A stretch of DNA of 6,089 nucleotides from a virus (lineage: Duplodnaviria; Heunggongvirae; Uroviricota; Caudoviricetes), in IMG/VR virus record IMGVR_UViG_2684622669_000003, positions 1 to 6,089 of that record; one strand, given 5' to 3'. The notes beneath the pieces were generated by a model, which saw only the letters and a program-made list of their open reading frames with translations, was not told the origin of the DNA and did not search any database. Within the stretch, counting starts at the first letter, position 1. Each line of letters begins with the position of its first letter. The position numbers and the translations under genes are program-made. Positions 1,414 through 4,980 of the stretch are shown here, piece by piece.

Positions 1414-1428
1414 TTACCGTTGAGGTAA
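1414..1428. promoter_or_regulatory. operator palindrome TTACC-GTTGA-GGTAA (leftward operator site 1)
   Basis: Perfect inverted repeat TTACC-N5-GGTAA overlapping the -10 and start region of the putative leftward promoter; member of a six-copy motif family confined to intergenic DNA. Confidence 0.55.
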
Positions 1429-1456
1429 TGATTATGCGTATTTGGTTTGATGTCAA
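1428..1456 (-). promoter_or_regulatory. putative leftward early promoter (pL-like): -35 TTGACA, 17-bp spacer, -10 AATCAT, read on the minus strand
   Basis: Minus-strand TTGACA (plus 1451-1456) and AATCAT (plus 1428-1433) with 17-bp spacing, about 30 bp upstream of the ATG at 1394; flanked by two operator palindromes. Confidence 0.4.
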
Positions 1457-1475
1457 TAGATATGAGTTAAAAAAA

Positions 1476-1490
1476 TTACCCGATAGGTAA
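1476..1490. promoter_or_regulatory. operator palindrome TTACC-CGATA-GGTAA (leftward operator site 2)
   Basis: Perfect TTACC-N5-GGTAA inverted repeat with an a/t flank extending it to 17 bp, located upstream of the -35 of the pL-like promoter. Confidence 0.55.
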
Positions 1491-1547: not shown

Positions 1548-2132
1548 TTATTGTTTGTTTTTTTCGTTCTGGTTGATGACAAATTCAATGTAACTTTCGA
1601 TCTTTGCTTTCTCGGTTTCGGGTAACAAAGCGTAGCGCGAGCGGTCATAGTTGATAGTCGCAGGGTCGTGTGGGTGAATCAGTAGTTCATATCCGTGACG
1701 CCCGAATGCTGATGCAACATTCTCCAGGGTGGAAATGGAAACGCTGACCTCATTGTTTAACAGGCGGCTGATTGTCACCTGGGCGACGCCGGATGCGCGG
1801 TGAAGTTTTCCCTGCGTTGAAAGGTCGCGGCTTTCGCTCATCCAGCGTTCCAGGTTGTGAGCCGCCAGCTGACCAATGTCGCTTGGTCCGACAGGTTGAA
1901 AACCTTCCTGAGAAAGCGAGCGATCGATATCAAGCCAGTTACGGGGTTTATTGGCGGCAGCTTCAATTTTTCGCGCAACCTGGTCGCCGATAACCTTCTT
2001 GCCAAGAGCCCAGCGGTTTACCAGATTTGCCTGAGTTCCAAGTTTTTCTGCCATCCGCGTCTGAACACCATTGAATTCACGGTCGATCAAGTCGTTGAGA
2101 TTTTGCCTGCGGACGTCCTGGATACTTTTCAT
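1548..2132 (-). CDS. prophage immunity repressor candidate, 194 aa, two tandem Cro/C1-type HTH domains, no recognisable S24 peptidase/autocleavage domain
   Basis: Complete ORF in the track. Two segments with the classic HTH pattern (TRMAEKLGTQANLVNRWALGKK and ASGVAQVTISRLLNNEVSVSISTLENVASAFG). Divergently oriented to a cro-like gene with operator palindromes between them; followed by a terminator. The C-terminus lacks the Ser/Lys dyad context typical of LexA/CI-like cleavable repressors, as judged by eye. Confidence 0.7.
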   Translation of the reverse strand: MKSIQDVRRQNLNDLIDREFNGVQTRMAEKLGTQANLVNRWALGKKVIGDQVARKIEAAANKPRNWLDIDRSLSQEGFQPVGPSDIGQLAAHNLERWMSESRDLSTQGKLHRASGVAQVTISRLLNNEVSVSISTLENVASAFGRHGYELLIHPHDPATINYDRSRYALLPETEKAKIESYIEFVINQNEKNKQ

Positions 2133-2187: not shown

Positions 2188-2202
2188 TTACCCAACAGGT
2201 AA
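2188..2202. promoter_or_regulatory. operator palindrome TTACC-CAACA-GGTAA (rightward/divergent operator site 1), followed by a degenerate copy at 2205-2219 (gcACC-ACATA-GGTaa)
   Basis: Perfect TTACC-N5-GGTAA in the repressor/cro intergenic region; the adjacent degenerate site keeps the ACC-N5-GGT core. Confidence 0.55.
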
Positions 2203-2225
2203 ATGCACCACATAGGTAACTATCC

Positions 2226-2254
2226 TTGATTTTTGTTACCTTATGGGTGAATAT
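2226..2254 (+). promoter_or_regulatory. putative rightward early promoter (pR-like): -35 TTGATT, 17-bp spacer, weak -10 GAATAT (exact -10 uncertain)
   Basis: TTGATT at 2226-2231; AT-rich -10 candidates at 2249-2260; about 30 bp upstream of the cro-like start at 2287; an operator palindrome occupies the spacer. Confidence 0.4.
2236..2250. promoter_or_regulatory. operator palindrome TTACC-TTATG-GGTGA (rightward operator site, one mismatch)
   Basis: Imperfect member of the TTACC-N5-GGTAA family, between the -35 and -10 of the pR-like promoter. Confidence 0.5.
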
Positions 2255-2884: not shown

Positions 2885-3736
2885 ATGAGCAGACATGCAA
2901 CAGATTGGGCCTGGGAGACAGATCCGGGTAGCTCGTCATTAAAGCTCATACTGCTCTCGATGGCTGACAGAGCCGATGAATATAACCTCTGCTACCCCAG
3001 CATAGAACGCCTCGTTAAAGACACTTGCCTGAATAAAAAAACCGTACAGGCCGGGCTTATATCGCTCATGAAAATGGGGCTTATTTCAGATACCGGAGAG
3101 AGAAAGGGAGCGACGAAAAGAGTGCGGGTTTTCTCTCTTAATATAACCAAAAACGGGAACATTAAAGGCAACCGGGAAGGGAGCAATGAACCCGAAAACG
3201 GTAATGTTCCCGAAAACGGTAATGTTCCCGAAAACGGTAATGTTCCCGAAAACGGGAATATACCCAAAAACGGGATGTTGAATGATCCCAAAAACGGGAT
3301 GTTGAATGATCCCAAAAACGGGATCCAGAACCAGTCATATAACCAGTCATTTAACCAAGAGAGGGAGAGCAGGACAAAAGCCGGGGATTCTGTGCCTCAT
3401 GACCCCGGCGCAAACAACGCCGTGATGAATAACTTTGTTCCTCCTGGTGGGCCAGGGCAATTAGGCAAATTTGTCATGCATGAACAATGGCAGCCATCAG
3501 ATGACTTTCTTCGGAAAAGCTCATTGCAGGGGATCTACCTGGACAGTCTGCCAACGGCACAGGAACTTGCAGAGTTCAGAATTTACTGGATGGCTGAGGG
3601 TAAGGCATACCATCAGGCACAGTGGGAGCAGAAGCTGGCAAGGCGGCTGCAGATTAGCAGACAGAAGCAATCAACATTACCTGATAACAACGTTCCGCAC
3701 TGGAACAGCCCTGAAGCATGGGAGGATTTCTTGTGA
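2885..3736 (+). CDS. phage replication initiation protein (functional analogue of lambda O): N-terminal HTH DNA-binding domain, repeat-encoded linker, C-terminal domain resembling DnaT-like replication proteins
   Basis: Complete ORF in the track. GGAG RBS 7 nt upstream of the ATG. N-terminal region (LKLILLSMADRADEYNLCYPSIERLVKDTCLNKKTVQAGLISLMKMGLIS) fits the winged-HTH pattern of phage replication initiators. Linker is encoded by tandem DNA repeats (NGNVPE x4, NGMLNDPK x2). Stop overlaps the start of the P-like gene. Domain naming is from recollection. Confidence 0.7.
   Translation: MSRHATDWAWETDPGSSSLKLILLSMADRADEYNLCYPSIERLVKDTCLNKKTVQAGLISLMKMGLISDTGERKGATKRVRVFSLNITKNGNIKGNREGSNEPENGNVPENGNVPENGNVPENGNIPKNGMLNDPKNGMLNDPKNGIQNQSYNQSFNQERESRTKAGDSVPHDPGANNAVMNNFVPPGGPGQLGKFVMHEQWQPSDDFLRKSSLQGIYLDSLPTAQELAEFRIYWMAEGKAYHQAQWEQKLARRLQISRQKQSTLPDNNVPHWNSPEAWEDFL
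3191..3324. repeat. iteron-like direct repeat array: 7 units with core CCC(G/A)AAAACGG, spaced 18,18,18,18,24,24 bp; followed by a 12-bp direct repeat pair CCAGTCAT(A/T)TAA at 3331-3354
   Basis: Seen directly: cccgaaaacggtaatgtt x3, cccgaaaacgggaatata, cccaaaaacgggatgttgaatgat x2, cccaaaaacgggat. Located in the linker-coding part of the initiator gene, the arrangement known for ori-lambda inside gene O. Confidence 0.65.
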
Positions 3737-4518
3737 ACAACGTTTTTACCGCGATACAAAACCGTGACGGAGAAGCCCTTTCTCGCATGTCAGGTTATGA
3801 GCATCAGTACACTAACAATGACAACGTGGTGAACATGTCAGCAGAGAGGCTTGTTGATGCCCTTTTCAAACAGTTGAAACAACTGTTTCCGGCGGCAGTG
3901 GTAACCAACCTGAAGACGCCAGAGCAGGAAGTTGCTGCAAAACAGCAGTGGATTGCTGCGTTTGCCGAAGGGGGGATCCGAACCCGTGAACAGGTTTCTG
4001 CTGGTATGCGCCACGCCCGCGCCAGTGAATCTCCGTTCTGGCCGTCGCCAGGGCAATTCATCAAGTGGTGTAAAGACAGCAAGATGGTTCTTGGCGTCAC
4101 CATTGACGATGTGATGGCGGAGTTTCACCGGTACAGCAAGGAAAAAAGTTTATATCCTGGTGGTCCCGAAAGATTCCCGTGGCGGCATCCGGTTATGTAC
4201 TGGGTCGTATGTGATACCCGCCGTGCAATGTATCAGCGCCAGCTTAGCGAGATTGAGGTTGAGAAACACGCGCGCAGGCTGCTCGATGATTGGGCGAAAA
4301 AGGTGGCTTCCGGACAGCAGATACCCGAGCCGGTGATCAGCATACAGGCAAAGCCAGAGCCCATGAGTACACCTCCGGACACAGGGAGAGACGTTTACCA
4401 TCCATCAGGGCGAAGTTTCGGGTGCATGCCTAACGCCGCCACCCTTGGGGGAATAACACCAGCGCAGTGGCTGATGGAGGAATACAGGCGGGGAAAGGCG
4501 GCAGGATTTATCAAGTAA
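3733..4518 (+). CDS. P: lambda P-like replication protein (DnaB helicase loader)
   Basis: Translation aligns by eye with recalled lambda P (FPA...EQV.AGMR.AR....PF.PSPGQF..WC, YP....PW....YW, IPEPV). Start chosen at GTG 3733 (GGAGG 7 nt upstream, GTGA overlap with the initiator stop, as in lambda O/P); an alternative ATG at 3718 gives the track ORF 3718..4518. Confidence 0.8.
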   Translation: MNNVFTAIQNRDGEALSRMSGYEHQYTNNDNVVNMSAERLVDALFKQLKQLFPAAVVTNLKTPEQEVAAKQQWIAAFAEGGIRTREQVSAGMRHARASESPFWPSPGQFIKWCKDSKMVLGVTIDDVMAEFHRYSKEKSLYPGGPERFPWRHPVMYWVVCDTRRAMYQRQLSEIEVEKHARRLLDDWAKKVASGQQIPEPVISIQAKPEPMSTPPDTGRDVYHPSGRSFGCMPNAATLGGITPAQWLMEEYRRGKAAGFIK

Positions 4519-4555: not shown

Positions 4556-4570
4556 TTACCTAATGGGTAA
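4556..4570. promoter_or_regulatory. operator palindrome TTACC-TAATG-GGTAA (third locus, site 1)
   Basis: Perfect TTACC-N5-GGTAA with A/T flanks, upstream of the -35 of the promoter preceding the ORF at 4636. Confidence 0.5.
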
Positions 4571-4589
4571 CAAAATATTCTAAATTCTA

Positions 4590-4618
4590 TTGATTTCATG
4601 TCTTATGTGGTTTTTAAT
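4590..4618 (+). promoter_or_regulatory. putative sigma70 promoter: -35 TTGATT, 17-bp spacer, -10 TTTAAT, driving the post-replication gene block
   Basis: TTGATT at 4590-4595 and TTTAAT at 4613-4618, about 18 bp upstream of the ATG at 4636; same -35 hexamer as the pR-like promoter. Confidence 0.45.
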
Positions 4619-4632
4619 TACCTAGGAGGTAA
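4618..4632. promoter_or_regulatory. operator palindrome TTACC-TAGGA-GGTAA (third locus, site 2) overlapping the -10, transcription start and RBS
   Basis: Perfect TTACC-N5-GGTAA; the GGAGG RBS of the ORF at 4636 lies inside the palindrome. Confidence 0.5.
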
Positions 4633-4635
4633 ATC

Positions 4636-4980
4636 ATGAGAAAACAGATACAGGCTCTTGGTCGACTCAAAACAGGCCAGATGAACAAAACAGAATCTGC
4701 GTATTGCCAGCACCTTGAGCTGCGTAAACGTGCAGGAGAAATCGTCTGGTATCGATTTGAGGGTATCAAGCTGCGGTTAGCTGACAACACGTTCTATACG
4801 CCCGATTTTGCTGTGATGCTCGCCACCGGCGAGATGGAACTGCACGAAGTGAAAGGTTTCTGGACCGACGACGCCAGGGTGAAAACCAAAGTCGCCGCAG
4901 ATCAGTATCCGTTCCGAATCATCGGGGTAACGGTTAAACCAAAGAAAGCAGGTGGTGGCTGGAGCATCGAAGAGTTCTGA
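4636..4980 (+). CDS. DUF1064-like small phage protein with PD-(D/E)xK nuclease-fold signature, 114 aa
   Basis: Complete ORF in the track with a strong RBS (AGGAGG). Motif YTPDF ... ELHEVKG fits a PD-x(n)-(D/E)xK catalytic core; the DUF1064 label is from recollection of similar prophage ORFs. Confidence 0.6.
   Translation: MRKQIQALGRLKTGQMNKTESAYCQHLELRKRAGEIVWYRFEGIKLRLADNTFYTPDFAVMLATGEMELHEVKGFWTDDARVKTKVAADQYPFRIIGVTVKPKKAGGGWSIEEF

Follow-up and report, generated by a model that had tools for sequence, protein, structure and literature searches.

The window analysed here, a stretch of 6,089 nucleotides from the IMG/VR virus record IMGVR_UViG_2684622669_000003 (Caudoviricetes), is the early region of a phiV10-like prophage belonging to the genus Uetakevirus, a group of epsilon15-like podoviruses. 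Most of it aligns at 96-97% identity with the corresponding early regions of phiV10, phiv142-3, PAS61 and other phages. No match to the whole window near 100% was obtained in the RefSeq genomes of E. coli, the best ones displaying 96-97% identity at 95-97% coverage. The genes follow each other in the order RecE-like exonuclease, two small genes, terminator, rep, cro-like gene, terminator and a gene encoding a 67-aa protein, and the series continues with a DnaT/O-like initiator, a lambda-P-like loader, a DUF1064 gene and an ea-like gene (Table 1). No RNA family was detected in the window using Rfam.

Table 1. Features of the window, numbered from the first nucleotide of the 6,089-nt stretch.
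Feature	Position	Strand	Remarks
RecE-like exonuclease, 273-aa ORF	122-943	minus	Own stop at 122
OL-like control region	1414-1490		Perfect candidate operators 1414-1428 and 1476-1490, 62 bp apart, bracketing the leftward promoter
Intrinsic terminator ending the rep transcript	1508-1527	minus	8-bp stem with 6 GC pairs, then a T-run; terminator annotated there in phiV10
rep, lysogeny (immunity) repressor, 194 aa	1548-2132	minus	ATG-to-stop ORF; end coordinate includes the stop codon
Rep aa 153-194, putative C-terminal module, equivalent of the SPC32H CAD	1551-1676	minus	Tetramerization and Ant docking, p53-like TetDloop; aligns to 5D4Z/5D50 residues ~157-197
Rep aa 85-152, second HTH_3-like unit, putative equivalent of the SPC32H middle dimerization domain (MDD)	1677-1880	minus	Pfam above cut-off; Foldseek to 5D4Z
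Rep aa 1-70, putative N-terminal HTH DNA-binding domain (DBD)	1923-2132	minus	AlphaFold helices, sub-threshold Pfam, homology
OR-like control region between rep and cro-like gene	2188-2250		Candidate operators 2188-2202 (perfect), 2205-2219 (2 mismatches), 2236-2250 (1 mismatch)
cro-like gene, 76 aa, divergent from rep	2287-2517	plus	PHROG 35 'transcriptional repressor', E=5.6e-13
Terminator after the cro-like gene	2539-2558
Possible weak operator GCACCTCAAAGGTAA	2573-2587		2 mismatches; after the cro-like terminator; weak evidence
67-aa Cys/His-rich protein, conserved	2666-2869	plus	PHROG 1081, function unknown, E=8e-43
DnaT/O-like initiator	2885-3736
Lambda-P-like loader	3718-4518
Third candidate operator pair	4556-4632		4556-4570 and 4618-4632, both perfect, 62 bp apart; between the P-like and DUF1064 genes
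DUF1064 gene	4636-4980

The RecE-like ORF is separate here; in phiV10, RecE and RecT are annotated as one fused protein of 586 aa, and in other relatives as two genes. A Cro role is presumed for the product of the 76-aa gene from its position only. The Cys/His-rich protein, encoded past the cro-like terminator and ahead of the replication genes, bears a weak resemblance to the N-terminus of endonuclease VII. Within the initiator gene, tandem repeats of 18 bp (4.6 copies), 24 bp (2.6 copies) and 12 bp (2.4 copies) occupy positions 3191-3357; these iteron-like repeats encode the repeated peptides PENGNV and NGMLNDPK. By analogy with lambda O, this part of the initiator gene may harbor a replication origin.

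The 194-aa ORF had been placed at 1548-2132 and proposed to encode an immunity repressor by a sequence-only reading of this DNA. The ORF is real and is located on the minus strand, a point absent from that reading. Its product, Rep, is 100% identical at the amino acid level to gp40 of phiV10, to the repressor (ORF21) of vB_EcoP_ZX5 and to proteins of a dozen other phage records; the GenBank note for gp40 mentions 'two helix-turn-helix motifs ... similar to putative repressor epsilon15p38'. Since all of the 12 nucleotides (out of 585) that differ between rep and the gp40 gene are synonymous, rep is considered to be under purifying selection. Homologues retrieved among 5.8 billion proteins amount to 86, all of them around 194 aa in length and matching HTH families only. 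A 1.25-kb segment containing rep is present in 540 of 5426 complete E. coli genomes (~10%).

Two Cro/C1-type HTH-like segments had been noticed in the Rep chain, and this layout is recovered by Pfam, by an AlphaFold model and by alignment to a protein of solved structure. When the whole protein is compared to Pfam, HTH_3 is matched in two stretches (E=1.2e-9), along with HTH_26, a LacI-type HTH and a YdaS/Cro-like HTH. Scanned alone, residues 85-194 pass the cut-offs of both HTH_3 (25.8 bits, cut-off 23) and HTH_26 (24.9 bits, cut-off 22); residues 1-75 remain sub-threshold, with 16.1 bits for HTH_3 and 20.6 bits for YdaS. The AlphaFold model displays four N-terminal helices (residues 4-19, 24-31, 35-43 and 50-59, pLDDT 85-92), followed by a low-confidence linker, a second helical HTH-like domain and a C-terminal helix. 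Among 32 homologues, no substitution is seen at N36, R40 and W41 in the region of the N-terminal recognition helix, and L37 is almost always kept (>=90%). In the C-terminal module of the same proteins, Y162, L170 and F184 are invariant and I160, D163, R164, P171, K175, E179 and I182 nearly invariant.

The roles of these domains can be approached through the repressor of the Salmonella phage SPC32H. Using phmmer, residues 1-190 of Rep were aligned to residues 2-197 of PDB entry 5D50_A, 'Repressor' (E=4e-42), with residues 1-75 falling on its N-terminal domain, and Rep also matches 5D4Z, a C-terminal fragment. The same two entries are the top PDB matches of the AlphaFold model in Foldseek, 5D4Z with a TM-score of 0.80 and an rmsd of 2.9 A over 100 residues. 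BLASTP comparison with SPC32H Rep gives 42% identity over the full length (E=2e-53), distributed as 54% in the DBD, which is the best conserved part, 32% in the middle domain and 47% in the C-terminal module, the last two having thus diverged between the two proteins. In entry 5D50, the Rep of a temperate Salmonella phage is in complex with Ant. Rep and Ant of SPC32H, together with host LexA, were reportedly studied by Kim & Ryu in 2013 and by Kim et al. in 2016.

The layout attributed to SPC32H Rep, as conveyed at second hand (Kim et al. 2016 via PMC9986798), consists of an N-terminal DBD, an MDD and a C-terminal module that both tetramerizes and binds Ant, DNA binding being ascribed to the N-terminal HTH only. 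The same source calls the structural mechanism of repression by this protein not well characterised. According to a secondary description, SPC32H Rep is a tetramer on DNA, in which the paired DBDs are drawn from different dimers. The second HTH unit of the present Rep is, by analogy, read as a dimerization domain and not as a second DNA reader, because the solved homologue uses that unit in this way. Rep and SPC32H Rep have in common a homology extending over the full length, the three-part architecture without peptidase, the phage genus, and the position of the gene in the genome. The latter, with the recombination operon on one side and the cro-like/replication operon on the other, is also that observed in phiV10, Tyrion and BUCT711.

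In order to locate an autocleavage domain, the whole protein was searched against Pfam, and no Peptidase_S24 match was found even at E<=1, nor any C-terminal domain besides HTH families at the same threshold. No S24 domain is present in the 86 homologues either. Neither an S24 domain with its Ser-Lys dyad nor a linker Ala-Gly or Cys-Gly site, the marks of autocleaving repressors of the LexA/CI type, was found, and both dipeptides are absent from the entire Rep protein. Residues 1-190 are wholly accounted for by the 5D50 fold. The absence of an autocleavage domain, asserted in the sequence-only reading together with a proposed Pfam search for S24, is thus upheld by that search and by the lack of a cleavage dipeptide. 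As judged in silico, RecA would therefore be unable to make Rep cut itself. Lambda CI, P22 C2 and LexA resemble Rep in their N-terminal Cro/C1-type HTH and in a position between divergent early promoters with several operators. Unlike them, Rep possesses no S24 domain, Ser-Lys dyad region or Ala-Gly site, and its C-terminal part would, by homology, be made of an HTH-like dimerizer and a p53-like tetramerizer in place of S24.

The sites on which Rep could act were sought as repeated palindromes. The motif TTACC-N5-GGTAA occurs perfectly 5 times in the window versus 0.00 expected, and 8 times in phiV10 versus 0.04 expected. On the basis of this enrichment and of synteny, these palindromes are considered candidate Rep operators. 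In the OL-like region, the two sites bracket a leftward promoter (TTGACA-17-AATCAT, with the -35 hexamer TTGACA at 1451-1456 and the -10 at 1428-1433) located just past the rep terminator. In the OR-like region, the site at 2236-2250 lies inside the rightward promoter, between its -35 (2233-2238) and its -10 (2256-2261). The third pair brackets a promoter-like sequence recognized by eye, TTGATT-17-TTTAAT, with the same geometry as in the OL-like region; a promoter is therefore presumed at 4556-4632, and the pair suggests either a third early promoter controlled by Rep or a looping anchor.

A comparison with relatives was performed at each of these places. The 62-bp pair downstream of rep is also found in SPC32H and Tyrion, and as a 63-bp pair in BUCT711; a 62-bp pair occupies the position of the third pair in SPC32H, Tyrion and BUCT711. 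The OR-like arrangement of 17 bp and ~30 bp recurs in SPC32H (4239, 4269 and 4286), and BUCT711 displays a 17-bp pair in its OR-like region (4416 and 4433). SPC32H accordingly shares the same palindromes with the same spacing at three sites syntenic to those of the window. At the spot syntenic to the possible weak operator, sites with 1 mismatch were observed in Tyrion and BUCT711 (4046-4060 in both). The half-sites TTACC and GGTAA do not vary between phages of E. coli, Salmonella, Enterobacter and Klebsiella, even though their Reps share only 42-78% identity with the present one. A covariation of the half-sites with the divergence of Rep in SPC32H, Tyrion and BUCT711 was expected and not seen, the half-sites being invariant; the case for the operators is therefore built on synteny, spacing and enrichment, and not on covariation. 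Within the operator sites, the differences from phiV10 are confined to the spacers, which are AT-rich in SPC32H and mixed in this window. The 5-bp spacers are the only part of the operators to differ among the phages of the four host genera, an observation that bears on immunity specificity and cross-repression.

The symmetry of these sites also bears on the use of the two HTH units. A structure prediction had been proposed to see whether the two units pack as a pseudo-dimer. In the corresponding alternative, both units of one chain would contact DNA as an intramolecular pseudo-dimer on one operator, and the Pfam scores speak in its favor, since HTH families are matched more strongly by the second unit (HTH_3 and HTH_26 above cut-off, and LacI-type) than by the first. 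In the solved homologue, however, the second unit is the dimerization domain, a third C-terminal module is present, and the name DBD is given to the N-terminal domain only, as far as the secondary source reports. The operators, being symmetric palindromes made of identical half-sites, suit two identical DBDs and not two different HTHs. Furthermore, these half-sites do not change from phage to phage, yet conservation is far lower in the second unit than in the DBD. The AlphaFold monomer model shows no confident interdomain packing (pTM 0.41, pLDDT below 50 for linker residues 75-81) and, taken alone, speaks neither for nor against a pseudo-dimer. Because of the domain roles in the homologue and of the symmetry of the operators, the pseudo-dimer is not supported and is considered very improbable. 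The preferred reading is that of a single DNA-binding HTH per chain, followed by a dimerization unit.

In an early region of lambdoid style, rep is flanked by two divergent promoters, one PL-like and the other PR-like; this position supports the immunity repressor proposed beforehand, and the published behavior of the identical ZX5 protein leads to the same conclusion. In the ZX5 study, overexpression of this repressor resulted in zero free phage and decreased the mRNA of holin by 99.97% and that of endolysin by 99.99%. The assignment of Rep as an XRE-family antitoxin or accessory regulator, instead of an immunity repressor, was also considered. The record of phage BP9 annotates the protein as 'VapI antidote', and the only NCBIfam matches of Rep are to HTH and antitoxin families (HigA, HipB and RstR). 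All of these matches are far below their cut-offs, however, and this reading was therefore rejected as scarcely credible: no toxin gene adjoins rep, the divergent promoters that flank it are rich in operators, Rep is homologous to an experimentally defined repressor (5D50), and the overexpressed identical protein blocks lytic development in ZX5. Rep is accordingly treated below as the repressor of lysogeny.

The window itself does not contain the partner of this repressor. No Ant or Bro-N homologue was found in it by tblastn or by Pfam and PHROG searches of all the main ORFs, and a scan for LexA boxes returned no perfect one; matches with 1 mismatch numbered 3 versus 2.0 expected, which is the chance level. 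The statement that the window holds no antirepressor candidate or LexA box is thus correct, as is the corollary that the trigger would lie elsewhere. In phiV10, gp24, a protein of 85 aa annotated 'hypothetical', matches 5D50_E, 'Anti-repressor protein', with E=2.9e-46 and ~88% identity; no Pfam or NCBIfam family was matched by this Ant. A perfect LexA box, CTGTATAAATACACAG, is located 21 bp upstream of the gp24 ATG. ZX5 and the E. coli prophage carry CTGTATAAATATACAG before ant, which also fits CTGT-N8-ACAG, and the ant gene of SPC32H has a perfect LexA box of its own. The distance between rep and ant is ~11.3 kb on the phiV10 map and ~27 kb in the integrated E. coli prophage (CP8-3, at guaA). 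A cognate Ant under a LexA box is therefore found in relatives with an identical Rep (phiV10, ZX5 and the CP8-3 prophage), and the trigger is placed outside the window because these phages encode ant behind such a box far from rep. Of the 36 phage records with a Rep homologue, 35 also have an Ant homologue, and the ant region occurs in 529 of the 5426 E. coli genomes, as compared to the 540 that contain the rep region. Judging from the relatives with an identical Rep, the prophage from which the window originates would also carry ant.

The ant region of the relatives displays further features. The phiV10 gp24-type ant adjoins a tail-fibre gene. A palindrome resembling the Rep operators (TTACC-N5-GGTAA) lies ~40-50 bp upstream of the ant LexA box, and another one just 3' of ant in the E. 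coli phages (SPC32H, L006 1399-1413; ZX5, L007 1411-1425 and 1791-1805; phiV10, L001 20497-20511). The palindrome 3' of ant sits inside an inverted repeat ahead of the ash and Bro-N genes, long and perfect in phiV10 and imperfect in ZX5. Through these ant-side palindromes, Rep might also regulate the induction module, or else the divergent tail-fibre gene. The Ant homologue is labelled 'hypothetical protein' in ZX5, in phiV10 and in the RefSeq E. coli genomes, which likely represents an annotation gap in roughly 530 E. coli genomes. The places concerned, including those of Ant and of the neighbouring Bro-N protein in ZX5, are L007 1501-1758 and 2074-2769 (ZX5) and L005 8037-8294.

The ZX5 study assigned the role of anti-repressor to another protein, the Bro-N protein ORF4 (gp23 in phiV10), encoded just downstream of ant. 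Overexpression of ORF4 was described there to lower the prophage titre ~1000-fold and rep mRNA by 75%. The Bro-N domain is matched with E=1.6e-21, a Rep-operator-like palindrome separates ant from the ash and bro genes, and these additional ash and Bro-N genes distinguish the E. coli phages from SPC32H, from which the Bro-N gene is absent at that position. The abstract and sections 3.3 and 3.8 of the study nevertheless report no binding data for ORF4. The sections considered name only ORF4, ORF12 and ORF21 as tested, and the Ant homologue, annotated 'hypothetical', is apparently not among them. The gene directly behind the LexA box encodes the Ant homologue, which shares 88% identity with the SPC32H protein seen in the crystal; immediately before bro, no such box was observed. 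It is consequently improbable that the Bro-N protein is the operative antirepressor, instead of or beside Ant. This protein, which is not the homologue of SPC32H Ant, may contribute to antirepression.

Ant is thus retained as the probable antirepressor, and a switch can be outlined by homology with SPC32H. The N-terminal HTH of Rep would bind DNA, as shown for SPC32H, the second HTH_3-like unit would have been turned into a dimerization domain and the last ~40 residues would form the tetramerization module. On DNA, Rep would be a tetramer with DBDs pairing across dimers. Motif statistics and synteny suggest that the operators cover the leftward promoter of the recombination genes, the rightward promoter of the cro-like and replication genes and a third one ahead of the DUF1064 and ea genes. 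Upon DNA damage, LexA would be stripped from the perfect SOS box located ~20 bp upstream of the 85-aa ant, a gene and a box observed in the relatives with an identical Rep. Ant would then bind the C-terminal module of Rep and convert the tetramer into dimers, and Rep would leave the DNA, as can be deduced from the 5D50 complex. A secondary description of SPC32H states in this respect that Ant is produced once LexA is inactivated, and that an Ant tetramer binds two dimers of Rep and disrupts the Rep tetramer. Tetramerization of the present Rep, its disassembly by Ant and its resistance to cleavage on SOS induction are presumed from this homology, with indirect support from the conserved C-terminal residues and the overexpression phenotype in ZX5.

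Induction by an antirepressor, as in some Salmonella prophages, had been put forward for this locus, and the published mechanism of the SPC32H Rep, a full-length homologue from a Salmonella phage, supports it. The Gifsy/Fels-2-type prophages and coliphage 186 (Tum) follow the same logic, in which a non-cleavable repressor is combined with a small antirepressor repressed by LexA; they are likened to the present system by this regulatory logic alone. SPC32H differs from them in that its Ant binds the C-terminal module and splits the tetramer, according to the secondary account.

The spacing of the operators raises a further point. The pairs separated by 62 bp, or about six helical turns, place one site upstream of the -35 and the other over the -10/+1 (1414-1490 and 4556-4632). 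This distance is observed in 5 of 6 pairs in the E. coli, Salmonella and Enterobacter relatives, and the Klebsiella phage displays 62 and 63 bp. Such a geometry extends across the genus and fits a single tetramer clamping each promoter. One Rep tetramer, with its DBD pairs formed across dimers, could thus hold both operators and wrap the promoter in a micro-loop, the splitting by Ant freeing both sites at once; this picture is proposed tentatively and is rather doubtful at present. The geometry may have been described already. Rep-type sites near ant could also set up a feed-forward loop in which Rep would damp the induction module as well.

The 194-aa ORF is therefore assigned, with a probability of about 0.9, as the repressor of lysogeny in an E. 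coli podovirus prophage of the phiV10-like, epsilon15 type (Uetakevirus), orthologous to SPC32H Rep, non-cleavable and controlled by an antirepressor. The system is already known: phage repressors of the same sequence have been deposited, and for the family to which they belong a structure has been solved and a mechanism of antirepression published. Rep is thus of little weight as a discovery and its practical value resides in annotation: 540 of 5426 complete E. coli genomes label rep only as 'helix-turn-helix domain-containing protein' and ant as 'hypothetical protein'. The combination of rep, ant, the LexA box and the TTACC-N5-GGTAA operators provides a complete and testable switch for a widespread family of E. 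coli prophages, which includes the O157-associated phiV10-like phages employed in detection tools.
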